Assembly: GCA_023659865.1 (NCBI GenBank)
Contig: JAGXON010000001.1
Span: forward strand, 45,968 to 109,967
Direction of reading: 5' to 3'
DNA: 64,000 nucleotides
Origin: Candidatus Diapherotrites archaeon LH_S9
GTDB lineage: Archaea > B1Sed10-29 > WALL01 > JAGXON01
Shown: piece after piece, positions 19,179-35,524 of the stretch
Layout of the letters: each line of letters opens with the position of its first letter
Numbering within the stretch: the first letter of the stretch is position 1
Position numbers and translations under genes: made by a program
Notes under the pieces: generated by a model
The model's input: the letters and a program-made list of their open reading frames with translations, nothing else
Databases searched by the model: none
What the model was told of the DNA's origin: nothing

Positions 19179-19631
19179 GTGAGTAATATGACTTATAAAA
19201 ATACTCCGATTCCGGAAGACAAGGACCCAGAAGACTATACCCATAACGAAAGAAGGGCAGAAATACTAAAACATATCATAGATGCTGGCCTAAGCCGTAG
19301 AGTAAATCAGACGGAATTAGCTCAGAGATATGAAGCTTCCCAACCACAGATATCTCGGGACTTTAAAAGGATAAAGGAAGAAATACGGGACACTATTGGA
19401 AACGATATACAGGTGGATGCTTATGCTCTATACCAAAGTTCTATAGCTAAGTTACTTGACCAGGAGAGACCTTATTTAGCTTGTAAGGTTATGGATGACT
19501 ATCTAAAGTTTATATATGGTATAGGAATAGAAAAATCACCTGAAAAAATAGATAGTGAGTGCTCTGATCTTAGGGAACGCTTGTCTGAAGCGGCTAAAAA
19601 AATTGACAAGGAAGATTTTAAGGAGAAGTAA
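19179..19631 (+). CDS. HTH DNA-binding protein, candidate terminase small subunit
   Basis: A winged-helix/HTH segment (LSRRVNQTELAQRYEASQPQISRDFKRI) is present. Its position immediately upstream of terL, separated by 2 nt, supports the call. Confidence 0.4.
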   Translation: MSNMTYKNTPIPEDKDPEDYTHNERRAEILKHIIDAGLSRRVNQTELAQRYEASQPQISRDFKRIKEEIRDTIGNDIQVDAYALYQSSIAKLLDQERPYLACKVMDDYLKFIYGIGIEKSPEKIDSECSDLRERLSEAAKKIDKEDFKEK

Positions 19632-19633
19632 AA

Positions 19634-21025
19634 GTGAATAAAAAGCAAATTACTGAAAACGAAGCAGAGAAATTAATACTCACGAGGAAAGGACGATTTG
19701 CAGTAATTAAAGAAATATTTAATGTACAACCAACACCAGGACAAATGGATATAATAGAATCCATTGCATTAAAGTCTCATTTAAAACGAGTAGTGATCTC
19801 TGCATATACACAATACGGAAAAACGTGGAGCATTGCTATAGGGATATTACTCTATATCTGGCTCCAGGAGAACGATGGTAAAAAAATCGATGTCGTCGCG
19901 CCGAATGAGCAGAGCAAGATACTGGGAGATTATATTGCAAAGCTTATTGCTGGCTGCCCTGTGCTCGGACCTTCACCCCTCAAAAAGACTAACAGGAAAA
20001 GAGAGACCCTTAAGAAAGAAGTCAGCCGTAAACACTTAACTTTCACTAACGACTGTGAATTAAGGATATTGAGTGCACAGGGCCCAGCAGAGAGACTGAT
20101 GGGTCATGGCACGGATTTGCTGGTAATCGATGCAGCTTGTCTGATTGACCCTGAGGTTTATCGCTCTAAGATTAGTCGTGTGTTAGGAGATTCTCCTGAC
20201 ACGAAGCTCGTGGAAACCGGTAATCCATTGAATAAAAATAATCAGATGTGGGAGCATTGGACCGACCCTAATTTCAAAAAAATTCATGTTCCTTACACTG
20301 TTGGTTTAGAAGAAGGACGGGTGAGTGAAGACGTTATAGAAGAGCAACGAAGAGAACTCGACAGTACAACCTTTAAAGTCCTATACAAAGCGGAATTCCC
20401 AGACACTGTCGAGCAAGGACTGATTAGACACTCCTGGAAAGAGAAAGCAGTCCAGAGAGACCCGTTCGACCTAAAAGAAAGCCAGGAAATCGTTGGAATA
20501 GACGTTGCCGAATTCGGTGAAGATAAGACAGTTATAACCACCACAAAACAACTCAATAATAAAGTCAATGTAACAAAAGTAGAATCCTGGGAACGACTAG
20601 ACACCACGGAAACGGCGGATAAAATAGCTGACCACTTAGAAGGACATGAATACCTAGTAGTAGACGCAATAGGGGTTGGGAGCGGCGTAGCTAGCCGCCT
20701 CAAGCAAAAAGGATTCCAAGTAAACGCTATGAAAGTCAATAAAAGTCCCACAAACGAGAAACACAGGTTTACAAACAAGAAAGCGCAATACTATTGGAAA
20801 CTACGCGGTTTATTCGAAGATGGGAGAATCCAACTAAAAGAAGACATGAAAAACAAGGATAAGCTAGAAAAACAATTAAGTCAAATACAATACGAATTCA
20901 ACTCAAAAGAAAAGATTAAGATAAATGACCCACGAAAATCTCCCGATTACGCTGGCTCGTTGATGCTGGCTTGCAGTAAATCCCACGCTGGAACAGGGGG
21001 CGCTATAGTCGGAATTCGTTTTTAA
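19634..21025 (+). CDS. terL: Terminase large subunit (ATPase plus RNase-H-fold nuclease)
   Basis: Walker A (AYTQYGKTWS) and Walker B (DLLVIDAA) are present. The C-terminal nuclease begins VGIDVAEFGEDKTV. The length of 463 aa is typical. Confidence 0.6.
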   Translation: MNKKQITENEAEKLILTRKGRFAVIKEIFNVQPTPGQMDIIESIALKSHLKRVVISAYTQYGKTWSIAIGILLYIWLQENDGKKIDVVAPNEQSKILGDYIAKLIAGCPVLGPSPLKKTNRKRETLKKEVSRKHLTFTNDCELRILSAQGPAERLMGHGTDLLVIDAACLIDPEVYRSKISRVLGDSPDTKLVETGNPLNKNNQMWEHWTDPNFKKIHVPYTVGLEEGRVSEDVIEEQRRELDSTTFKVLYKAEFPDTVEQGLIRHSWKEKAVQRDPFDLKESQEIVGIDVAEFGEDKTVITTTKQLNNKVNVTKVESWERLDTTETADKIADHLEGHEYLVVDAIGVGSGVASRLKQKGFQVNAMKVNKSPTNEKHRFTNKKAQYYWKLRGLFEDGRIQLKEDMKNKDKLEKQLSQIQYEFNSKEKIKINDPRKSPDYAGSLMLACSKSHAGTGGAIVGIRF

Positions 21026-21067
21026 AGAAAAACCATTTTAAAGAAGGTAGTATATAAAGTTAAGTGA

Positions 21068-22342
21068 ATGCATATGAATTTTAAAGAAACACTACAGAAA
21101 CCAGTAAACTATATCAAGAACATGTATCACAAAGACACATCTACCGGCACTGATGCCGGGGACTACAAGATACCACATTTTCCTTATAAAGACCGGTATA
21201 TATACGATGTTGCTAACTACAGCAGTGTCTTGAACAATATTCTTCAAACTATCCAGACCGAGTTATTTAAAAATGGCTGGGAGTTCATTCCCAAGTATGA
21301 ATATATTTGCACCAGCTGCGGGAGAGAGTACGACCACGAGCCCGAACAGAAGAACGATGAAGGCGTACCTATCTGTAGTAACTGCGGTAACATAGTAACC
21401 AAACCCGACAAAAGCAGCATAAGAAACGTGAAGAAACAGCTCAGAAGAGACGTGAACTATAATAATCAAACGCTTACTGAAGTTCTCAAAGAAATCGAAT
21501 GGGACTTAGACGCTTACGACTCCGCTTACTTATATTTAGAGAAGAATTATGAACACGATTCGGACGGCAAACTCGTGAACACTGAAATCGACGAGATAGT
21601 TAAACTGCAACCAATCAGAATGAGAATAATCAAGAACGATAGAGGCATGCCAGCTACTGACCAAAAAGGAGACTCCATCAGATTCTGCCCAGAACATAGG
21701 GGCAAAAAAACAAAGAGAGATTACTGTGAGCAATGCGGACGAGAGACCCTCCCCACCTATTTTGTTAAGGAGAAGGGAGAGGAAAAAAAGTACTTCAGTA
21801 ATGATGAAGTCAAACACCTGAAGAAATACCGCCCGACAGAACCATACGGCTGGAGCCCAGTCATCCCTCTCTGGCAAAAAATACATATCCTTTATTTCAT
21901 GAATAGAGATAAGCCACCGAAGGGCCCCAAGAACTTTGCGAAGTACACAGAAATGAGGAACGGGCTCAAAAAAGAAGTAGATTCAACATACGGAGTCATG
22001 CCATTGTTCCAGGGAAACCTCGAAGGAGTAGGAGGATTGAACAACGAAGGCCAAGAGATTACTATAACCAACAGTGCTATGAGAAAAGGGCAAGAAGTAT
22101 TCAATAAGAAACTATTTCCCTGGCTTTGTGACCAACTGAGTTTAGAACATTGGACCATCGAACTCAATGAAGTCGAAACCAGAGACGTTGCGCAAGAAAA
22201 GCAACAGATTAACCAACGACGTATCCAGAACGCTGTGCAGATGAGTCAGATAGGATTCAACGTAGAATTGGATGAAAAAGAAGATAATAAATACGTCTCA
22301 TTCAAGTATAGCGGGAAAGCGGAAAAACCGAGTGAACAGTAA
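21068..22342 (+). CDS. Portal-like protein (positional inference) with two inserted zinc ribbons
   Basis: A 424-aa protein directly downstream of terL. CTSCG...CSNCGN and CPEH...CEQCG pairs are present. The portal identity is not established by motif. Confidence 0.3.
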   Translation: MHMNFKETLQKPVNYIKNMYHKDTSTGTDAGDYKIPHFPYKDRYIYDVANYSSVLNNILQTIQTELFKNGWEFIPKYEYICTSCGREYDHEPEQKNDEGVPICSNCGNIVTKPDKSSIRNVKKQLRRDVNYNNQTLTEVLKEIEWDLDAYDSAYLYLEKNYEHDSDGKLVNTEIDEIVKLQPIRMRIIKNDRGMPATDQKGDSIRFCPEHRGKKTKRDYCEQCGRETLPTYFVKEKGEEKKYFSNDEVKHLKKYRPTEPYGWSPVIPLWQKIHILYFMNRDKPPKGPKNFAKYTEMRNGLKKEVDSTYGVMPLFQGNLEGVGGLNNEGQEITITNSAMRKGQEVFNKKLFPWLCDQLSLEHWTIELNEVETRDVAQEKQQINQRRIQNAVQMSQIGFNVELDEKEDNKYVSFKYSGKAEKPSEQ

Positions 22343-24775: not shown

Positions 24776-24928
24776 ATGACTAACGGAAGAGGAAGAAAAG
24801 GCGGAAAAGCCCTCGGGCCAGGAGGACAATGCGTTTGCCCTGAATGCGGGAAAAAAGTACCGCACGAGAGAGGCGTCCCCTGCTACAAAAAAAACTGCCC
24901 AAAATGTGGAAGCAAAATGACGAGGTAA
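24776..24928 (+). CDS. 50-aa zinc-ribbon protein with a Gly/Arg-rich N-terminus, not in the ORF track
   Basis: Translation is MTNGRGRKGGKALGPGGQCVCPECGKKVPHERGVPCYKKNCPKCGSKMTR. Two CxxC pairs are present. It ends 4 nt before the next gene and begins just after the operator. Confidence 0.5.
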   Translation: MTNGRGRKGGKALGPGGQCVCPECGKKVPHERGVPCYKKNCPKCGSKMTR

Positions 24929-24932
24929 AAAA

Positions 24933-25424
24933 ATGAAAATAGCAATACCCTCAACAGGAAAATCGATAGACAGCACGATAAGTAACATCTTTGGAAGATG
25001 CCCAGTATACATAATAGCCGAGATAAAAGAAGATCCAGAAACAGGAAAAAAAGAGATAGGAAAAGCAGAAGCCATAGAAAACCCTGCTGTCGGACAAAGA
25101 GGAGGAGCAGGAATAATGGCATCCCAAACGCTCGGCAACGAAGACGTGGACATAGTAATAGCCCCAAGAATAGGGCCAAGAGCATTCAACGTACTCCAAA
25201 AAATAGGCATAGAGATATACCAAGCCTCCGGAAACACCGTGAAACAAAACCTGGACAACTTCCTTGAAAACAAACTAAACAAGATAAACTCTCCCGGCCA
25301 GATGGGCATGGGCCCAAAACCAGGAGCTGGAAGAGGCGCAGGCAGAGGCCAGGGCGCTGGACAAGGAAGAGGACAAGGCGGTGGAGCCGGACAAGGAAAA
25401 GGTAGAGGACAAGGAAGAAAATGA
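24933..25424 (+). CDS. NifX/NafY-like (Nitro_FeMo-Co family, PF02579) protein with a C-terminal Gly/Arg/Gln-rich tail
   Basis: MKIAIPSTGKSIDSTISNIFGRCPVYIIAEI matches the dinitrogenase FeMo-cofactor-binding fold. The tail is GAGRGAGRGQGAGQGRGQGGGAGQGKGRGQGRK. Confidence 0.6.
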   Translation: MKIAIPSTGKSIDSTISNIFGRCPVYIIAEIKEDPETGKKEIGKAEAIENPAVGQRGGAGIMASQTLGNEDVDIVIAPRIGPRAFNVLQKIGIEIYQASGNTVKQNLDNFLENKLNKINSPGQMGMGPKPGAGRGAGRGQGAGQGRGQGGGAGQGKGRGQGRK

Positions 25425-26668
25425 GCGATAACCTAAAGAAAGGAGAGGACGCAGCAGGAAAAGTGAGCATAGTTACTTTTCTTCTAGCTGCAGGGAAAGG
25501 AATCGCTGGAGTGATGACTGGAAGCATAGCTTTGCTCACAGACGCTCTTCACTCCACTGTCGACTTAGTCGTGGCGGTTGCTTCCTGGCTTAGTCTAAAG
25601 CTTTCTCAAAGAGAAGCCGATGAACAGTTCCAGTACGGGTACTACAAAGCAGAGAACCTGGCAGCGTTCGTAATCTCTTTTTTCATCCTCTACGCAGCTT
25701 TCAACTTTGCAATAGAAGGTATAAAAAGGCTCTCGGTTGTAGAACCAATAAAACTGCCTTTCCTGGCAATGGGAGCTACGCTAGTATCAGCAATCGTTTC
25801 CGGATACCTAGTGAAATACTTAAGGGAAAAAGGAGAGGAAACAGGATCTGCATCGCTTTTGGCGAACGCAAAAGAAACTCTTGCAGACGTAATGTCTTCA
25901 TTAGTTGTCTTCGTCGCCATAGTGTGCACTTACCTAGAGATACCTTACGTTGAAGGAGTAGTCACAATAGGAATATCGTTATTTATATTCAAAGAAGGTT
26001 TCGAAACCATTAAAGACTCTTCTTTTGCTTTAATGGACGTCAGCCCAAGCAAAAAACTAGAAAAAGAAGTTGCAGAAGCAGCTAAAAAAGTGAACGGAGT
26101 CAAAGAAGTCAATAACCTGAAACTAAGAAAATCCGGTCCATTCATCCTGGGCGACCTGGACGTTCAGATAAGTAAGTCAGCCGACGTGGAAAGAGCTCAC
26201 ACAGTAGCAGACGAGATAGAGGAAAAAGCAAAAAGAAACGTGAAAGAACTTGAATCAATAGCCGTGCAAGTCGAGCCATTCAAACCAAAGGAAAGAACAG
26301 TTGCAATACCTGTAAAAGAAGATAAAGGAATGAAATCAGAGGTGAGCAATCACCTGGGAAGATGCGAACACATCGTTTTCCTGAACATCACTCCAGAAGA
26401 AAAAACAATAGAAAAAATCATGAAGAACGAGTACAAACAAAAGAAAGTTAGAGCTGGATTATCGCTGTCAAGAGAGTTATGCGAGCAAAAAACAGATGCA
26501 GTAGTAGTGCAAAGAATCGGAGAGATAAGCTTCCACACGCTAAGAGACTGTTTCACCGACATATACAAAACCGAGGGAAAAACAGTGGAAGAAGTATCAA
26601 AAAAAGTAAGGAAAAACCAGCTAAAGCTCTTGAAAGAACCTACAAAAAGATCAGGAGCCAAAAAATGA
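25421..26668 (+). CDS. Cation diffusion facilitator (CDF) metal efflux transporter fused to a C-terminal NifX-like domain
   Basis: Six TM segments with the HSTVDLV motif and a cytoplasmic CDF domain. The C-terminal ~110 aa contain IAIPVKEDKGMKSEVSNHLGRCEHIVFLNI, a Nitro_FeMo-Co pattern. An ATGA overlap links it to the upstream gene. Confidence 0.6.
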   Translation: MSDNLKKGEDAAGKVSIVTFLLAAGKGIAGVMTGSIALLTDALHSTVDLVVAVASWLSLKLSQREADEQFQYGYYKAENLAAFVISFFILYAAFNFAIEGIKRLSVVEPIKLPFLAMGATLVSAIVSGYLVKYLREKGEETGSASLLANAKETLADVMSSLVVFVAIVCTYLEIPYVEGVVTIGISLFIFKEGFETIKDSSFALMDVSPSKKLEKEVAEAAKKVNGVKEVNNLKLRKSGPFILGDLDVQISKSADVERAHTVADEIEEKAKRNVKELESIAVQVEPFKPKERTVAIPVKEDKGMKSEVSNHLGRCEHIVFLNITPEEKTIEKIMKNEYKQKKVRAGLSLSRELCEQKTDAVVVQRIGEISFHTLRDCFTDIYKTEGKTVEEVSKKVRKNQLKLLKEPTKRSGAKK

Positions 26669-27030
26669 AAGTAGCCATACCCACAGACTCAGGAAAAGTC
26701 GCTCCTCACTTCGGAAGAGCCCCAGAATACACTATCGCCATCATCGAAGAAAAAGAAGTCAGCAAAAAACAAAAAATAGATAATCCTGGCCACAAACCAG
26801 GTTATCTGCCGAAATTCTTCAACGAAAAAGGCGTAGACGTCATGCTGGTTAAAGGGATAGGAAGAAGAGCAGTTTCCTTGTTCAACCAGTTCGACATCGA
26901 TATTGTGACAGGAGCTCAAGGCAAGATAGATGAAGTGCTCGAAAAATTCGTTGAAGAAGAACTAGATGAAAAAAGCAATCCATGCAAACCAGGTAAAGGA
27001 AAAGACTACGGAATAGAAAAGGAGGATTAA
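26665..27030 (+). CDS. NifX/NafY-like (Nitro_FeMo-Co family) protein
   Basis: MKVAIPTDSGKVAPHFGRAPEYTIAIIEE is present. I placed the start at 26665, coupled to the CDF stop, rather than the longer track ORF. Confidence 0.6.
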   Translation: MKVAIPTDSGKVAPHFGRAPEYTIAIIEEKEVSKKQKIDNPGHKPGYLPKFFNEKGVDVMLVKGIGRRAVSLFNQFDIDIVTGAQGKIDEVLEKFVEEELDEKSNPCKPGKGKDYGIEKED

Positions 27031-27031
27031 A

Positions 27032-27775
27032 TTGACCAAACTAATGATGATCCTGGCAGCAAGTCTTCTTTCAGCCGTTCTCTGCAGCCTAGGCGTCCTA
27101 GTCATCTGGAGATTCAGAGAATTCGGCGAAAAATCAATGAATTACTTCATGTACTTTGCTTCAGGAGTACTAGTATCAGCTGCATTCATGATAGCTGCTC
27201 CAAAAGCATTCAGCATGAACGAATACGGTCCCATGTTCATGTTGCTCGGTTTCTTATCCATCTTCCTTCTGGACAGATTCATAAACCTTTACGTTTGCCA
27301 CGGTCACACAAAAAAATGTACAAGAGGATTCAGAATAAGCGTAGTAGCGGCAATAGGAATAGCGCTTCATTCATTCGTTGACGGAATAATATACTCAACA
27401 ACATTCACCGTATCCTCCTTCCTTGGTGTGATGACCACTCTAGGACTGATATTCCACGAATTTCCTGAAGGGATAATAACATTCATACTATTCCTTAAAG
27501 GAGGGTTCAGTGAAAAAAAATCCTTGATTTACTCAATACTGATAGCAGCATTAACCACCCCCCTAGGAGCAATAATTAGTTACCCATTCATAAGCACGCT
27601 GAGAGGACCTAAACTAGGAGCAATGGTAGGCCTAACAGCTGGAGTGCTCGCATTCGTAGGAGCATCACACCTGCTGCCGGAAGCGGAAAGAAAAAGCAAG
27701 AAGTACGGAATAATAGCTTTCCTGCTCGGAATAGCAGTAGCATCAGTTCTGGTTGTGGTAAAAGGAGGAGTATGA
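27032..27775 (+). CDS. ZIP-family metal (Zn/Fe) transporter
   Basis: The HEFPEG motif, His-containing TM helices and a length of ~247 aa are consistent with the ZIP family. Confidence 0.65.
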   Translation: MTKLMMILAASLLSAVLCSLGVLVIWRFREFGEKSMNYFMYFASGVLVSAAFMIAAPKAFSMNEYGPMFMLLGFLSIFLLDRFINLYVCHGHTKKCTRGFRISVVAAIGIALHSFVDGIIYSTTFTVSSFLGVMTTLGLIFHEFPEGIITFILFLKGGFSEKKSLIYSILIAALTTPLGAIISYPFISTLRGPKLGAMVGLTAGVLAFVGASHLLPEAERKSKKYGIIAFLLGIAVASVLVVVKGGV

Positions 27776-27847
27776 AAACAAACGCGAAAAACAAAGCTAG
27801 CATTAATCCTGACATCATTAATCGCTCTCGCAATATACGTGAATCAA

Positions 27848-27875
27848 TTGAAAAGATTTCAACACTGAATTTCAA
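27848..27875 (+). promoter_or_regulatory. Palindromes TTGAAA-AGA-TTTCAA and TGAA-T-TTCA upstream of the MinD-ferredoxin ATPase pair
   Basis: Both are perfect inverted repeats 13-40 nt upstream of the ATG at 27888. Confidence 0.35.
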
Positions 27876-27887
27876 GGAGAAAATAAA

Positions 27888-28718
27888 ATGAAGATAGCTG
27901 TAACAGGGGGAAAAGGCGGAACAGGAAAAAGCACAGTAGCAACAGCCCTAGCAACACAACTAGCAAAAGAAAATAAAGTCTTGCTTGTAGATGCAGACGT
28001 TGACTGTCCTGACGACGACCTAATCCTCTCCATAAAGACCCGGAAGACGAAAGACGTTGAAAACATGATACCGGAAATAAATGAAGAAAAATGCATCAAA
28101 TGCGGAAAATGCGCTGAAGCATGTAAAGAAAACGCTTTAGTTCAAGTAAAAAAACAAACTCCGTTTCTCGTTGAAGACCAGTGCACTGGCTGCAAAGCAT
28201 GCAAATACACGTGCCCAGTTAACGCGATAACGGAATCAAAACAAAAAATAGGCGAGATAAGCAGAGGAGAAAACAGCAAGATAAGTTTAGTGAAAGCAGA
28301 CCTCAAACCAGGAATAGAGGAATCAAGCCTCGTTGTCAACGCCTTAAAACGATACGTGGAAAAAGAAGAAGACAAATACGACCACATCATAATCGACACG
28401 GCAGCTGGAACCCACTGCCCCGTAATAGCAGCATTAACAGGAGCAGAAAAAGCTCTGGCCGTGACAGAACCAACACCACTCGGAAACCATGACCTGAAAC
28501 TAATTCTAGAGCTTCTGAAAAAGCTCGAAGTTCCAGCGAAAACAGTTATAAACCGTTCAGACATCTCAAGCAAGAAAGAAACTGAAGAAATAGCAGAAGA
28601 ATTCAGTTCACCTGTGATAACTGGGATACCTTACAGTAAAAAAATCCAGGAAGACTACGCAGCAGGAAAACCGATCGAACACGAACAAATAAATAAAATA
28701 GCGGAGGCGATAAAATGA
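27888..28718 (+). CDS. MinD/ParA-superfamily P-loop ATPase with an inserted 2x[4Fe-4S] ferredoxin domain (COG1149-like)
   Basis: The deviant Walker A GGKGGTGKST is present, as are CIKCGKCAEAC and CTGCKACKYTCP. Confidence 0.75.
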   Translation: MKIAVTGGKGGTGKSTVATALATQLAKENKVLLVDADVDCPDDDLILSIKTRKTKDVENMIPEINEEKCIKCGKCAEACKENALVQVKKQTPFLVEDQCTGCKACKYTCPVNAITESKQKIGEISRGENSKISLVKADLKPGIEESSLVVNALKRYVEKEEDKYDHIIIDTAAGTHCPVIAALTGAEKALAVTEPTPLGNHDLKLILELLKKLEVPAKTVINRSDISSKKETEEIAEEFSSPVITGIPYSKKIQEDYAAGKPIEHEQINKIAEAIK

Positions 28719-29602
28719 AGGAACTGACAGTACTATCAGGAAAAGGAGGAACAGGAAAAAGCAGTATAACAGCATCACTTGCAGCAATCTTATCAGAAGA
28801 AAAAGAAATAGTCACAACGGACTGCGACGTGGACGCCTCGAACCTGTCCATACTTTTAGGAAACAAGAGACCGTACAGCACTAAAGAAATATCCACGAAC
28901 GAGAAAGCCTTTGTGAAAAACCCGGAGAACTGCAGAGGAAAAAACTGTAAGAAGTGCGTGGACCTGTGCGCATTCTCAGCAATCGAATGGAACGAAGAAA
29001 AAGAAATACCGGAGATAAACAAGTTCCTGTGCGAAGGGTGTGGCTCCTGCAAAATAGCGTGTCCAGAAGACGTCTTCGAACTGAAAAAAGTGAATAACGC
29101 TACTCTAACCGAAACAGATACTGATTACGGATTTCCTCTAGTATCAGGACAGCTGAAGATGGGAGAAGCAGGCTCAGGAAAAGTAGTAGACCTCATAAAA
29201 AAGATAGCAAAAGAAAAAAACAGAGAAATACTCCTATCAGATTCCGCAGCCGGAATAAGCTGCCCAGTAATAGCTTCAGTAAGAGACAGTGACTACGTTG
29301 TAGCAGTCACCGAACCATCGCCAGCGGCTTTAAGCGACCTGAAAAAAGCTCTAGAAATAGTTGAGCACTTTGGAATAAGCTACGGGATAATCATAAACAA
29401 GTACGACTTGAACAAAAAATCCACTGAAGAAATAGAAAAATTTGCAGAAGAAAAAGACGCCAAAATCCTTGGAAAAATTCCTTTCGACAAAAAATTCGTG
29501 GAATCGCTGGTGAAGATGAAACCAGTAGTGGAAGAAAGCAAGGAACATCGAAAGATGTTCTCCAGTATTCTGGAAAAAATCATGGAAGACTCCAAATTAT
29601 GA
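28715..29602 (+). CDS. MinD/ParA-superfamily P-loop ATPase with an inserted ferredoxin domain (paralog)
   Basis: GKGGTGKSS is present, plus CRGKNCKKCVDLCAF and CEGCGSCKIACP. An ATGA overlap links it to the upstream paralog. Confidence 0.75.
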   Translation: MKELTVLSGKGGTGKSSITASLAAILSEEKEIVTTDCDVDASNLSILLGNKRPYSTKEISTNEKAFVKNPENCRGKNCKKCVDLCAFSAIEWNEEKEIPEINKFLCEGCGSCKIACPEDVFELKKVNNATLTETDTDYGFPLVSGQLKMGEAGSGKVVDLIKKIAKEKNREILLSDSAAGISCPVIASVRDSDYVVAVTEPSPAALSDLKKALEIVEHFGISYGIIINKYDLNKKSTEEIEKFAEEKDAKILGKIPFDKKFVESLVKMKPVVEESKEHRKMFSSILEKIMEDSKL

Positions 29603-29612
29603 ATACCTAACC

Positions 29613-29649
29613 AAAACCTTTATAAAGTATAATGAATACAAATTCATTA
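29613..29649 (+). promoter_or_regulatory. Archaeal promoter (CTTTATAAA) plus the perfect 8-4-8 palindrome TAATGAAT-ACAA-ATTCATTA
   Basis: Near-identical to 24738-24774. It sits about 25 nt upstream of the ATG at 29675. Confidence 0.55.
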
Positions 29650-29674
29650 AAGTTTTTATGGAGGTGAACAAAAA

Positions 29675-30061
29675 ATGCCATTTGGAGACGGAACAGGCCC
29701 AAGAGGCCAAGGACCAATGACAGGAAGAGGATTAGGGTTCTGCGCAGGCTTTAACAACCCAGGATTCACCCAAGCAGCACCAAGAAGAGGGCTCGGAAGA
29801 GGCCAAGGTTTCGGAAGAGGCCAAGGTTTCGGAAGAGGTCGAGGTTTCGGAAGAGGACCTGGATTTGGAGCAAGATTTGCCCCATCAACTGCAAGAACTC
29901 CTGCAAGAACTCCTGTAAGAGCACCTGCTCAGAGGATGACAAAAGAAGATGAAACGAATCTACTGAATCAGGAGAAACAAGCAGTGGAAAGAGAGCTGGA
30001 AACGCTCAAAAACGAGCTCGAAAATATAAAAGAGAGAATAAACAAAATAAGTGAAGAATAA
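29675..30061 (+). CDS. DUF5320-like protein with a Gly/Arg/Phe-rich N-terminal half and a C-terminal coiled coil
   Basis: MPFGDGTGPRGQGPMTGRGLGFCAGF is followed by GRGQGFGRGQGFGRGRGFGRGPGFG. The C-terminal heptad-like segment is EKQAVERELETLKNELENIKERI. Confidence 0.55.
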   Translation: MPFGDGTGPRGQGPMTGRGLGFCAGFNNPGFTQAAPRRGLGRGQGFGRGQGFGRGRGFGRGPGFGARFAPSTARTPARTPVRAPAQRMTKEDETNLLNQEKQAVERELETLKNELENIKERINKISEE

Positions 30062-30362
30062 CATGACTCGACCTAGAAAACCACGAACAGTAAGAAGAAA
30101 GCCAGGAGCCACATACTTCAAACCAAGAGCAGTTCCCCTGTCCACCTTGAAAGAGGTTACGATATCAGTGGGCGAGCTCGAAGCAATACACTTATCTGAT
30201 GCAGAAGGAAAAGACCAGAAAGAAGCAGCAGAAGAAATGAACATCTCGCAACCAACTTTCAGCAGGCTCCTGGCGTCAGCAAGAAAAAAAGCAGCGGAAG
30301 CTCTGTACAAAGGAAAAGCAATAAAAGTAGAAGGGGGAGAATACAAGCTAAAGGAGGATTAA
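30051..30362 (+). CDS. DUF134/UPF0251-family predicted DNA-binding regulator (sigma-70 region-4-like HTH)
   Basis: The sequence RPRKPRTVRRKPGATYFKPRAVPL...ELEAIHLSDAEGKDQKEAAEEMNISQPTFSRLLASARKKAAEAL matches the family. Confidence 0.65.
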   Translation: MKNNMTRPRKPRTVRRKPGATYFKPRAVPLSTLKEVTISVGELEAIHLSDAEGKDQKEAAEEMNISQPTFSRLLASARKKAAEALYKGKAIKVEGGEYKLKED

Positions 30363-30613: not shown

Positions 30614-32017
30614 ATGAATCTAAAAAAATTGTTTTTTGGACTCTTAACGATACTTATATTATTTGCACCAGCAGCAACAGCAGCAAAAACTTGCACAACC
30701 TACTTCACTGGAGTGGGATGCCCACACTGCGCTAAAGCAGACCCGGTAGTTCTTGAAGACTACCCACAAGACTTCAATAGCTTAGTTGTAATAGAGTACG
30801 AGATATACCAAAAACAATCCAATGCACCTCTTCTCTACAACTTCAACTCAAATTATAACTCGGGCCTAGGCGTGCCTGCCCTCATATTCGGGGAAGACAA
30901 TTCACTTGTTGGAGATCGGCCAATACTTCAGAAAGGGGAAAAATCAGTTTCTGATCACGAAGGAAACGCTTGTCCAACCTCGATAGGTAAAATAAAGTTC
31001 GATAGCCTTGATTTATCAAAACTCGAGGGCTACCCCAAGATCTGGGCCAACAAAAGAGTAATCCTTGGCAAGCCTGATAATTCAAGCTCGAGCGAAGTTC
31101 TGAAATCGCTCTTGTTCGAGGAAAATCTAGTAGAAGAACTGGAAAAAATGAACAAAACCTCTAAAAGCCCTTCCTCAGTCCCGTTATCCGGAAAAAGCGT
31201 TAACTTTGATAACGCCGTCCAGATAGATGGAGCAACACTTCAATGGAATGGGAAAGGATTGGAAAAGCAAGGAAATGGGACCAGTGCCACCAGACCACAA
31301 GGAGATTACTCCAGGATCAGTCCTGACCTCACTTTGCCAAAGATAGTTGGACTAGCTGCAGTAGATGCTGTCAACCCGTGCGCTCTAGCAGTTCTGAGCC
31401 TCATGCTTATCTCAATAATCACTTACAATCCAAAAGAAAAGAGGAACATACTCCTGGCAGGACTGGCGTTCGTTGCATCTGTTTTCGTCATGTACCTGTT
31501 CTACGGCCTAGTTATAGTGAAATCATTTCAGTTGATTCAAGCATTAACATCAGTTAGAGTAATGCTTTACAAAGCTCTAGGTGTTCTAGCGATAGTTCTT
31601 GGTATACTTAACTTAAAGGACTTCGTGCACTACAAGCCCGGAGGATTTGGCACGGAGATGCCGAAGTTCCTAAGACCGAAAGTGAAGAAAATAATCTCTG
31701 GAATTACTTCACCTAAAGGCGCTTTCCTGGTCGGTGCTTTCGTAACGCTGTTCCTTTTACCATGCACAATCGGCCCCTACGTCATAGCCGGAGGAGTACT
31801 ATCCACACTAGGTTTACTTAAAACTCTTCCAGCGCTGTTACTCTACAACGCAATCTTCGTTCTTCCAATGCTAGCGATAACCATAATCGTTTACATGGGA
31901 ATGAGTTCAATAGAAGACGTCTCAGAATGGAGAGAGAACAACATACGCTACCTGCACTTAATCGCAGGAGCAATCATCTTAGGGCTTGGAATCGCAATGG
32001 TTCTAGGGCTGGTATAA
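30614..32017 (+). CDS. Thiol:disulfide interchange membrane protein (CcdA/DsbD family) with an N-terminal thioredoxin-like CPHC domain
   Basis: There is a signal peptide. GCPHCAK is present, plus the transmembrane Cys motifs AVNPCALAVL and LLPCTIGPY. Confidence 0.6.
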   Translation: MNLKKLFFGLLTILILFAPAATAAKTCTTYFTGVGCPHCAKADPVVLEDYPQDFNSLVVIEYEIYQKQSNAPLLYNFNSNYNSGLGVPALIFGEDNSLVGDRPILQKGEKSVSDHEGNACPTSIGKIKFDSLDLSKLEGYPKIWANKRVILGKPDNSSSSEVLKSLLFEENLVEELEKMNKTSKSPSSVPLSGKSVNFDNAVQIDGATLQWNGKGLEKQGNGTSATRPQGDYSRISPDLTLPKIVGLAAVDAVNPCALAVLSLMLISIITYNPKEKRNILLAGLAFVASVFVMYLFYGLVIVKSFQLIQALTSVRVMLYKALGVLAIVLGILNLKDFVHYKPGGFGTEMPKFLRPKVKKIISGITSPKGAFLVGAFVTLFLLPCTIGPYVIAGGVLSTLGLLKTLPALLLYNAIFVLPMLAITIIVYMGMSSIEDVSEWRENNIRYLHLIAGAIILGLGIAMVLGLV

Positions 32018-34221: not shown

Positions 34222-34325
34222 TGGGTCCGCCCGGAGTTGAACCGGGGATCTTCTGCACGTCAAGCAGACGTCTTAACTACCCTTCCCGCAAAGGAACGCG
34301 GAAAACCGGGCTAGACCACGGACCC
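34222..34325 (-). tRNA. tRNA-Val (anticodon GAC) with an approximately 29-nt insertion (putative intron) in the D-loop
   Basis: Minus-strand read: acceptor GGGTCCG/CGGACCC, D-stem GTCT/AGAC, anticodon arm TCTGC-TTGACGT-GCAGA, T-arm CCCGG-TTCAACT-CCGGG, discriminator A73. Total length is 104 nt. Confidence 0.55.
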
Positions 34326-34373
34326 AGAATCCATATACAGTTTTTTGCTAGCTTTTTTCTAAAAAAAGCTGAG

Positions 34374-34465
34374 TGGACCTGAGGGGAGTTGAACCCCTGA
34401 CCTCGTCCACTTTGTCGAATTCTTCCGTCGCCAAGGACGCGCTCTTCCAACTGAGCTACAGGCCC
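34374..34465 (-). tRNA. tRNA-Ala (anticodon GGC) with a canonical-position intron of about 19 nt and a G3:U70 pair
   Basis: Minus-strand read: GGGCCTG-TA-GCTC-AGTTGGAA-GAGC-G-CGTCC-TTGGCG[intron]T-GGACG-AGGTC-AGGGG-TTCAACT-CCCCT-CAGGTCC-A. The G3:U70 pair is the alanine identity element. Confidence 0.65.
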
Positions 34466-34735: not shown

Positions 34736-35524
34736 TTATAAGTTTAATAGTTCTTTTATTCTTTTTATTATTCCTTTGGTTTCCTTCGGTTTCTTGATTC
34801 TTTCTGGAGGCTCTTCGTCAAGCAGGTCTGCCGCTAGCCCGATTATTGCCTTGGCCGCTGGATTCTGTGGATTGGTTAAAACTATTGGTTCCCCTTTCAT
34901 CGTGGATTCTCTTGTTTCAGAGTCTTCGGATATTGTTGCAAGTACGTCGGTTTGCACGGTCTTCCTTATCTCTTCGTTGTCCATTTCTTTTCTCATTCCT
35001 TTTTTCATGTTCACTACCGTGCCCAGAATGTCTAGTCCGAGTTTTCTTTCAGCTATTACTGCCATTTTCATGGAGTCCGTAACTGCTGACGGTTCCGGCA
35101 TGGTGACAATCATGGCTTCGTCTGAAGAATTAAGTGCTGCTAAAGTGCTTTCTTCTACTCCTGGCGCCGTATCAATAAGTATAATGTCTGCGTTAGGTGA
35201 AATAGTGTCTATTATTTTCTTGAACTTCTTTCCATCTATTTCTTCGATGTTTTCTTCCGATAAAGCAGCAGGCATGTACATCGTGTTCTCGTTTATCTCG
35301 TATAAAGCGTCTTCTACGTCTGCTTGTCCTATTAAAACGTCCTGAAGACTTATTGGTGTTCCTTTTTTTCCTAGCATCAGCGAAATGTTCGCCATCCTTA
35401 TGTCCGCGTCAACTATTATCACTTTTTTGTCGAATTCGGCGAGCGCTAGGCCTAGGTTGATTGCAAGAGTTGTTTTTCCTACCCCCCCTTTTCCTGAGGT
35501 TATTGCTATTTTTCTTGCCATCAT
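34736..35524 (-). CDS. minD: MinD/ParA-family cell-division/partition ATPase
   Basis: The deviant Walker A KIAITSGKGGVGKTT and a length of 262 aa are consistent with MinD/ParA. Confidence 0.8.
   Translation of the reverse strand: MMARKIAITSGKGGVGKTTLAINLGLALAEFDKKVIIVDADIRMANISLMLGKKGTPISLQDVLIGQADVEDALYEINENTMYMPAALSEENIEEIDGKKFKKIIDTISPNADIILIDTAPGVEESTLAALNSSDEAMIVTMPEPSAVTDSMKMAVIAERKLGLDILGTVVNMKKGMRKEMDNEEIRKTVQTDVLATISEDSETRESTMKGEPIVLTNPQNPAAKAIIGLAADLLDEEPPERIKKPKETKGIIKRIKELLNL

Follow-up and report, generated by a model that had tools for sequence, protein, structure and literature searches.

Among the metal transporters known as cation diffusion facilitators (CDFs), the structurally characterized FieF/YiiP (PDB 2qfi, 3h90, 5vrf, and 8f6e) combines a six-helix membrane domain with a ZT_dimer cytoplasmic domain (CTD), after which YiiP stops. 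The non-nitrogenase members of the NifX-like family (PF02579/IPR003731) are free-standing proteins of ~105 to 125 amino acids (aa). Here, we describe a gene in which the two are joined. It is located on the + strand (25421..26668) of a 64,000-nucleotide stretch of DNA (the window) from Candidatus Diapherotrites archaeon LH_S9 (GenBank assembly GCA_023659865.1, contig JAGXON010000001.1, positions 45,968 to 109,967). Its 415-aa product has the domain plan of FieF/YiiP and adds ~125 aa that carry a NifX-like domain through a junction of fixed length, and the surrounding operon suggests a part in the handling of iron and iron sulfide by anaerobic archaea and bacteria.

The structures of non-nitrogenase NifX-like proteins such as MTH1175, TM1290, TM1816, and ORP have been known for two decades, and their function is not agreed. 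The ORP cluster of anaerobes has a loose link to cell division and Fe-S maturation. In Pyrococcus furiosus, IssA serves iron-sulfur storage and consists of an IPR003731 domain and a cationic Gly/aromatic tail that binds thioferrate; an Arg/Trp/Gly-type tail is the chemical signature of this thioferrate-binding tail, and MTH1175 falls in the same clade as IssA (PMC5524996). IssA homologues were up-expressed in Methanococcus voltae grown on FeS2 (pyrite) (PMC8516115). In the ORP system of Desulfovibrio, Orp3 and Orp4 are MinD-like and carry two [4Fe-4S] motifs, and Orp8 (ORP, 2wfb) is a NifX-family protein holding a Mo-Cu-sulfide cluster (PMC6345978). MrpORP unites an Mrp/NBP35 domain with a NifX-family domain that binds a [3Fe-4S] cluster, and an HxPGxxP motif is also described there (PMC6345978).

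Full-text literature searches on a CDF joined to a NifX/Nitro_FeMo-Co domain (PF02579/IPR003731) found no description of the fusion. One magnetosome paper names the two domains, but in different proteins, and an ANME-2a network paper names a CDF alongside NifX-family, 4Fe-4S, and P-loop genes, with speculation on nickel/F430 given without evidence. A literature search on DUF134 and DUF5320, two further families encoded in the operon, brought up mostly unrelated DUF13xx hits. The fusion is already visible in precomputed domain tables; its status as a family, its rigid junction, its atypical transport site, and its ORP/IssA-like context appear to be undescribed. To our knowledge, the fusion would be the first CDF with a regulatory domain of the cofactor-carrier type.

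The fusion gene runs from an ATG start to a TGA stop. The initial annotation of this DNA had proposed a CDF core, a cytoplasmic domain, and a Nitro_FeMo-Co domain within one protein, and Pfam found all three. The six-helix membrane domain (25469..26035) matched Cation_efflux over aa 17 to 205 (E = 3.5e-49) as well as TIGR01297, and the CTD (26045..26281) matched ZT_dimer (PF16916) over aa 209 to 287 (E = 2.8e-16). Scores for CDF membership were 223.7 bits for TIGR01297 (cut-off, 82.35) and 167.7 bits for PF01545 (cut-off, 26.6). The NifX-like domain (PF02579/IPR003731) occupies aa 292 to 410 (26294..26650). Within it, aa 305 to 397 matched Nitro_FeMo-Co with an E value of 9e-11, spanning profile positions 2 to 93 of 94, and the C-terminal extension exceeded the gathering threshold of that model (42.4 versus 26.3 bits), as anticipated. 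The match to NifX-like proteins was therefore sound, but the peptide quoted for it was not, since the sequence reads TVAIPVKEDKG... and not IAIPV.... An AlphaFold2 (AF2) monomer model built from 117 homologues (mean predicted local distance difference test [pLDDT], 85.9; predicted template modeling score [pTM], 0.63) showed six long helices (residues 2-33, 36-62, 75-105, 113-141, 144-171, and 177-204), followed by a CTD of alpha-beta-beta-alpha-beta order and one more alpha/beta domain.

A search of 5.8 billion proteins yielded 330 relatives, of which the best 120 were examined and 117 were aligned, and a scan of one genome per species yielded 323 relatives, of which the best 80 loci were examined. 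All three Pfam domains were present in each of the 120 best homologues (42 to 100% identity, mostly 98 to 100% coverage), and the fusion was encoded at all 80 of the best species-level loci. The CDF part alone (aa 1 to 290) was also compared with 1.84 billion representatives at 50% identity; among the best 150, the NifX-like domain was found on 104, and several of the others were truncated. The fusion had been called unusual. It is indeed rare among CDFs overall, but it forms a conserved family that has members in DPANN archaea, Thermoplasmata, Bathyarchaeia, Patescibacteria, and other groups and accounts for these 104 of 150 representatives. In databases, the homologues are named simply "cation diffusion facilitator family transporter." The nearest genomes are a Micrarchaeota metagenome-assembled genome (MAG) and an unclassified archaeal MAG (67 to 68% identity). 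According to the labels on the deposited records, the fusion occurs in Aenigmatarchaeota, Woesearchaeota, Iainarchaeum, Micrarchaeota, Parvarchaeota, Thermoplasmata/Methanomassiliicoccales, Bathyarchaeia, and Methanosarcinales bins among the archaea and in Patescibacteria groups, Actinomycetota/Humimicrobiaceae bins, and Zixibacteria among the bacteria.

A sequencing or assembly frameshift that falsely joined a CDF gene to a NifX gene would undo this picture, and the stand-alone NifX genes that flank the open reading frame (ORF) could in principle invite such an error. However, the continuous architecture was recovered in 120 of 120 top homologues from independent assemblies and at 80 of 80 genome loci, the length of the junction is invariant, and the fused domains group together as paralogues apart from the flanking genes. 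Because the best homologues, the genome loci, and the junction length all agree, a frameshift or mis-join is ruled out, its probability being negligible. A close CDF relative without the NifX-like domain was also seen: P0134 (319 aa) carries a Gly/Arg tail, SPRSRGRAKGGPRGRKARAGGGR, directly after its HVEP motif.

The attachment of the added domain is regular. From P286, which ends the CTD motif, to P297, within the first strand of the NifX-like domain (26276..26311), exactly 10 residues intervene in 117 of 117 aligned homologues, variable in sequence and constant in number. The same spacing was observed in 66 of the 70 representatives in which the flanking pattern could be found (of the 104 at 50% identity). 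By sequence, the domain alone (aa 291 to 415) matched TM1816, PH0822, MTH1175, and TM1290. The family profile matched the same four proteins with E values of 2e-17 to 2e-12 and MJ0327 and ORP more weakly, the range over NifX-like PDB proteins being 2e-17 to 9e-6.

A domain-only model (pLDDT, 92.2) superposed on solved NifX-like proteins, namely 2yx6, 1o13, 2re2, 2wfb, 1rdu, 1p90, 1eo1, and 9ian_F (Foldseek TM scores of 0.61 to 0.89), with a further match to MJ0327; no other fold was returned by Foldseek below an E value of 1e-3. TM1816 (1o13/1t3v), PH0822 (2yx6), Ta1041m (2re2), TM1290 (1rdu), MTH1175 (1eo1), and MJ0327 (2qtd) have the same fold (TM scores of 0.69 to 0.89), and ORP (2wfb) is a close structural match as well (0.83 to 0.86). 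The fused domain has the motifs IPV, S, HFGR, N, G, and GxLxxL in common with these non-nitrogenase proteins, whereas the close subfamily of fusions has its own GEISFHTLRD motif. NifX, NafY, and the C-terminal domain of NifB (1p90 and 9ian) belong to the same Pfam family and fold (TM scores of 0.61 to 0.70), but their similarity is the lowest among family members, at 12 to 13% identity to the fused domain; moreover, the equivalent of their cofactor-binding His (HFG) is present in only 78 of 117 fusions, and the operon holds no nif genes.

Among the NifX-like sequences of the 80 loci, the nearest neighbor of every fused domain was another fused domain, with 44% identity within the group compared with 23 to 27% to the stand-alone neighbors. 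To judge from these sequences, the fused domain is an old, separate paralogue and not a recent capture of a flanking gene. Its conserved residues are P297, S306, HLGR (311 to 314), N336, G346, G367, F371-H372-x-L-R375-D376, and T408. In the 117 close sequences, N336, G346, G367, H372, R375, D376, and T408 were nearly invariant; among the 104 distant representatives, only P297, N336, G346, G367, and L374 were conserved at more than ~80%. About 20 of the 117 homologues extend the fused domain by 25 to 49 residues into an Arg/Trp/Gly tail, ending in motifs such as RRRGPWWGRW or GRGRFGGRGPRWGR, and would in effect be CDF-IssA fusions by their sequence. The window protein has only 7 residues after T408 and is thus without a Gly-rich cationic tail of the IssA type.

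The core looks, from its sequence, like a working transporter with a carboxylate-shifted site A. FieF/YiiP from Escherichia coli and Shewanella, of the Fe/Zn group of CDFs, is its nearest solved relative, both by profile (E = 1.5e-36) and by fold. By alignment to D45, D49, H153, and D157 of YiiP, site A consists of H44 and D48 in transmembrane helix 2 (TM2) and of E152 and D156 in TM5, so that D48 and D156 align with D49 and D157, but the site as a whole is H,D/E,D in place of D,D/H,D. The core had been described as canonical; this stands for the six TM helices and the CTD but not for the first TM5 ligand, Glu152, which is His in Zn and Fe/Zn CDFs. Across the 117 sequences, that ligand was Glu in 82 and Asp in 35 and was never His. 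D48 was present in all 117 and H44 in 84, and residue 156 was Asp in 84 and His in 32. The corresponding quartets were HD-ED (46 sequences), HD-EH (32), DD-DD (17), and ED-DD (7), followed by the rarer ND-DD (5), HD-DD (5), DD-ED (4), and HD-DN (1). The CDF signature residues F70, G73, K76, and E78 were invariant, and the CTD metal-site residues H260, D/E264, E267, H283, and E285 were kept in at least 110 of 117. The window CTD retains H260, D264, E267, and E285, including the H260 and E285 of FieF/YiiP; position 283 is Gln, but it is His in 110 of the 117 homologues.

Transmembrane domain (TMD) V carries HxxxD in all Zn and Fe/Zn CDFs and DxxxD in Mn CDFs, which also have Asp in TMD II, and hard ions prefer carboxylates (PMC1868760). 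The HxxxD of the Zn-CDF and Fe/Zn-CDF groups is absent from the window protein, which has ExxxD and not DxxxD in TM5; part of the fusion family has the DD-DD or ND-DD sites typical of Mn CDFs, and with ED-DD included such sites make up about a third of it. Such a carboxylate-shifted site would favor Fe(II) or Mn(II) over Zn(II). Among the named NCBIfam models, the fusion scored best with MamM (165 bits), MamB (155), and MntE (133), followed by FieF (122), Cdf31 (96), ZitB (70), and DmeF (51), and its CTD resembles MamM CTD structures. All of these scores lie well below the cut-offs: those of MamM, MamB, and MntE are 350 to 500 bits (500 for MntE), and that of the FieF equivalog is 420. There is no magnetosome gene context, and none of MamM, MamB, and MntE bears a NifX-like domain. 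The TM5 ligand, always Glu or Asp and never His, the nearness of the core to MamM, MamB, MntE, and FieF rather than to Zn exporters, and the independent gene contexts, every one of which concerns iron or Fe-S (see below), together suggest that the transported ion is a hard divalent cation, most likely Fe(II) and possibly Mn(II).

The operon context, which was absent from the initial annotation, is the most informative point. Nine + strand genes lie tightly packed at 24776-30362 in a translationally coupled operon, the fusion gene being the third, and three of the junctions are 4-nt ATGA overlaps. The first gene (24776..24928) encodes a 50-aa zinc-ribbon protein with two CxxC pairs. It had no Pfam or NCBIfam match of its own, but phmmer cross-matched it to the DUF134 seed; its homology is to the C-terminal portion of the long DUF134 proteins of related loci, and it recurs beside the fusion. 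The second (24933..25424), whose stop overlaps the start of the fusion by 4 nt, encodes an IssA/IssX-like NifX protein (Nitro_FeMo-Co, E = 1.2e-18) with a Gly/Arg tail of 52 aa (GRG/GQG repeats, pI 12, 38% Gly, no aromatic residues). Directly downstream, and again overlapping the fusion gene by 4 nt, lies a second stand-alone NifX paralogue (26665..27030; 121 aa; Nitro_FeMo-Co, E = 2.3e-19) with an HxPGxxP motif. It is followed by a ZupT-like ZIP divalent metal importer (27032..27775; PF02535, E = 5.9e-24), which matched the ZupT model with an E value of 2.7e-17, below the cut-off.

Two MinD/ParA-type P-loop ATPases come next. The first (27888..28718; CbiA, ParA, and Fer4 matches) has an inserted 2x[4Fe-4S] ferredoxin domain, an architecture like that of Orp3 and Orp4, and the second (28715..29602), also with [4Fe-4S] motifs, overlaps it by 4 nt. 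The last two genes encode a DUF5320 protein (29675..30061; PF17253, E = 1.6e-24), whose N-terminal half is rich in Gly, Arg, and Phe (pI 12) and whose C terminus is coiled-coil-like, and a DUF134 protein (30051..30362; PF02001, E = 5.6e-26), with a sigma-70 region-4-like helix-turn-helix (HTH), which is the probable regulator of the cluster. The DUF5320 repeat GRGQGFGRGQGFGRGRGFGRGPGFG is of the same Gly/Arg/Phe kind as the IssA-like tails. DUF134 appears to be split here, with the zinc ribbon at the head of the operon (24776-24928) and the HTH at its end (30051-30362); the long DUF134 proteins of other loci have ~165 aa. No nif genes were found among the nine genes of the operon or, as far as screened, at the 80 loci with the fusion; the screen did not extend to the remainder of the window. 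The operon context points to iron/iron-sulfide handling and not to nitrogenase-type metalloclusters.

By published description, the product of 24933-25424 has the design of IssA, a NifX-like domain plus a Gly/Arg tail. IssA itself differs from the fusion in being soluble and, in published descriptions, not linked to a transporter, whereas the fusion is a membrane-bound CDF. Likened in the same way, the ORP complex has the same parts as the operon, namely two MinD-type [4Fe-4S] ATPases and single-domain NifX-like proteins. However, no membrane transporter is described there, and that complex is regulated by sigma-54 and an enhancer-binding protein, where DUF134 is the probable regulator here. 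MrpORP is matched by the downstream paralogue 26665..27030, which aligned with positions 266 to 365 of the NF041136 MrpORP model (the Di-Nase domain) at 84.7 bits. This match is partial and far below the cut-off of 450, and the window operon has no Mrp/NBP35-NifX fusion.

The neighborhood was counted at the 80 genome loci as phmmer matches to the window seeds on the same strand within 6 kb of the fusion. A stand-alone NifX gene was present at 62 of the 80, at least one MinD/Fer4 ATPase at 60 (two at 52), DUF134 or a zinc ribbon at 53, DUF5320 at 32, and ZIP at 9. The cluster context was recovered at 36 of the 43 loci that had at least 3 kb on both sides. In related loci, the gene directly upstream of the fusion usually encodes a tailed protein, e.g., GMGRGFGRGGFGRGRRW. 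Its orthologues in other genomes often have aromatic GFGRG/GMGRG tails with W or F at the end. The loci without the cluster had other neighbors: SufC-SufBD adjoined the fusion at L058, L061, and L023; an FecCD permease, a binding protein, and FmdE lay beside it at L018; and ferritin and peroxiredoxin lay beside it at L002, with VIT1 nearby.

Several variants of the cluster were also observed. Gene order is not fixed: L015, L040, and L041 have long NifX proteins (244 to 295 aa) and one MinD gene on either side of the CDF fusion. At L048, L054, and L057, the NifX tail itself ends in a DUF5320-type coiled-coil motif. One locus from Zixibacteria (L083) has a single ORF with matches to the NifX as well as the DUF5320 seed, apparently a fusion, together with a 425-aa ORF that matches the NifX and MinD seeds and is MrpORP-like.

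Taken together, we tentatively favor a regulated Fe(II)/Mn(II) efflux CDF with a NifX-like regulatory or docking module, working within an iron/iron-sulfide homeostat operon, although we would not yet put this reading ahead of all others combined. The sequences themselves show the three-domain architecture and its conservation, the rigid junction, the operon, and the atypical site A, and the function proposed from them is our inference. The C-terminal ends of the two subunits are adjacent in a CDF dimer, and metal binding to an ordinary CTD is thought to bring these ends together, switching transport. We take the fusion to be a genuine homodimer-type CDF antiporter in which the CTD is extended, through the fixed junction, by the non-nitrogenase NifX-like domain. 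This domain might report the loading of a cytoplasmic iron-sulfide pool (IssA/thioferrate-type or ORP-type species) or, alternatively, bind the soluble NifX paralogues. If a ligand or partner brought the two NifX-like domains together, their association could then close the CTDs and gate efflux, as an extension of the usual CTD allostery. In the operon as a whole, ZIP would take metal up, the IssA-like protein would store iron-sulfide species, and the CDF would release the excess. NifX-like domains are known to self-associate, since the MrpORP domain elutes mainly as a dimer (PMC6345978), and NifX-domain proteins bind Fe-S species, as in IssA (PMC5524996) and MrpORP (PMC6345978).

Several observations weigh against this proposal. 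The metal specificity read from site residues and from sub-threshold models is only indicative, all named NCBIfam equivalog models scoring far below their cut-offs. TM2 of the fusion keeps DAxHxxxD, and the neighboring importer is ZupT-like, which leaves room for Zn(II). H372 and D376 occur in 112 and 111 of the 117 close homologues but in only 53 and 55 of the 104 representatives at 50% identity, and the His of the HFG motif is kept in just 78 of 117 fused domains. The fused domain is free of cysteine in 96 of 117 sequences, and 11 of the 80 loci have no recognizable cluster genes near the fusion. Two specific ligand schemes were rejected. With conservation falling to ~50% in the 50%-identity representatives, H372 and D376 are not universal metal ligands and can be only subfamily-specific candidates. 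With cysteine missing from 96 of the 117 fused domains, a Cys-ligated Fe-S cluster like that proposed for the MrpORP Di-Nase domain is unlikely.

Two functions had been suggested at the outset, direct hand-off between a cytoplasmic carrier and the transporter and a regulatory sensor, and both are possible. In the hand-off reading, the fused domain would be a built-in metallochaperone acceptor, taking a metal ion or small metal-sulfide species from soluble NifX/IssA-like carriers and delivering it to the transport site. The two soluble NifX paralogues that flank the fusion with 4-nt overlaps would suit such a role, as would the recurrence of stand-alone NifX at 62 of 80 loci. CDFs are not known to carry anything but bare divalent cations, which speaks against hand-off. 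NifX-family carriers do pass clusters to partners (PMC5524996), and NifX is bound to NifEN in 9ian; here, however, the domain is fixed to the end of the CTD by 10 residues and not by a flexible tether, and the fused domain has neither a conserved Cys nor a family-wide His/Asp set. With the fixed 10-residue junction, the retained CTD metal-site residues, and the near absence of Cys, the evidence leans toward a rigidly coupled regulatory or docking domain and away from a flexible hand-off arm, and we consider hand-off unlikely, though with more than a trifling chance of being right.

The choice of metal opens another alternative, in which the fusion is a Zn(II) exporter opposing ZIP, the NifX-like domain is a Zn-sensing or structural oligomerization add-on, and the link to Fe-S is incidental. 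A DAxHxxxD pattern in TM2 is common among Zn CDFs; the TM2 of the fusion resembles it, H44 is found in 84 of 117 sequences, the ZIP neighbor scores best against ZupT, and zinc-ribbon proteins are encoded in the operon. Even IssA carries one Zn per monomer (PMC5524996). Set against this, no member keeps the TM5 His typical of Zn and Fe/Zn CDFs, the lowest NCBIfam scores are those of Zn-type models, the independent contexts are Suf, ferritin, VIT1, and FecCD, and ZIP is found at only 9 of 80 loci, so that a zinc exporter has, in our estimate, a small chance of being correct. Least probable of the functional alternatives is that the CDF mainly tethers an ORP/IssA-type complex or an iron-sulfide nanoparticle to the membrane by way of the NifX-like domain, aided in some members by a cationic tail, with transport secondary. 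The IssA-like Arg/Trp/Gly tails on ~20 of 117 fused domains would fit a tether, as would the tail that P0134 carries directly after its CTD with no NifX domain; in addition, the ORP components interact, MrpORP is polar, and Orp3/4 have MinD-like membrane helices (PMC6345978). But D48 is invariant, 116 of 117 sequences have Asp or His at position 156, F70, G73, K76, and E78 do not vary, and at least 110 of 117 retain the CTD site residues. Because site A, the CDF signature, and the CTD residues are all conserved, selection appears to act on transport itself, and a mainly tethering role is very doubtful.

A further idea, bolder and also quite improbable, combines transport with mineral handling. 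The fusion could be a membrane-anchored IssA, nucleating or dissolving an anionic thioferrate-like polymer at the inner membrane face while the CDF moves Fe(II); the Arg/Trp/Gly tail (in some lineages) or the co-translated tailed paralogue would assist the NifX-like domain. If this were true, ultra-small anaerobes would have a mineral-coupled transport device with a logic like that of MamM/MamB in magnetosomes, and the ORP/NifX-like gene clusters would gain a concrete role in iron-sulfide homeostasis. A NifX paralogue welded to an assayable transporter offers an experimental handle on NifX-like function, and the system bears on iron management by tiny-genome DPANN archaea and Patescibacteria in sulfidic habitats.

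Elsewhere in the window, upstream of the operon by 2.4 kb, is a viral packaging module (19179-22342, + strand) that may be a provirus remnant in an archaeal genome. Its genes, all on the + strand, encode a phrog_15023 protein (19179-19631), the large subunit of a terminase (19634-21025; phrog_2, E = 6.6e-29; Terminase_6C), and a portal protein into which zinc ribbons are inserted (21068-22342; phrog_18178, E = 3.5e-41). The idea that the operon consists of viral auxiliary genes was rejected, since dozens of unrelated genomes carry it on the chromosome. Directly after the operon, 30614-32017 (+) encodes a 467-aa membrane protein that combines a thioredoxin-like N-terminal region containing CxxC with a DsbD/SfLAP-type TM domain and may be a thiol-disulfide transfer protein. 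An archaeal MinD-type ATPase without ferredoxin motifs (34736-35524, - strand), ~5 kb downstream and beside a 196-aa acidic protein, is as far as seen unrelated to the operon. A tRNA gene of 92 to 93 nt (34373-34465, - strand) was detected by ARAGORN and Rfam (57 bits); ARAGORN could not assign its anticodon, and an intron is probably present, as in archaea. Next to it is another, marginal tRNA match (34222-34286, - strand; 29.8 bits).

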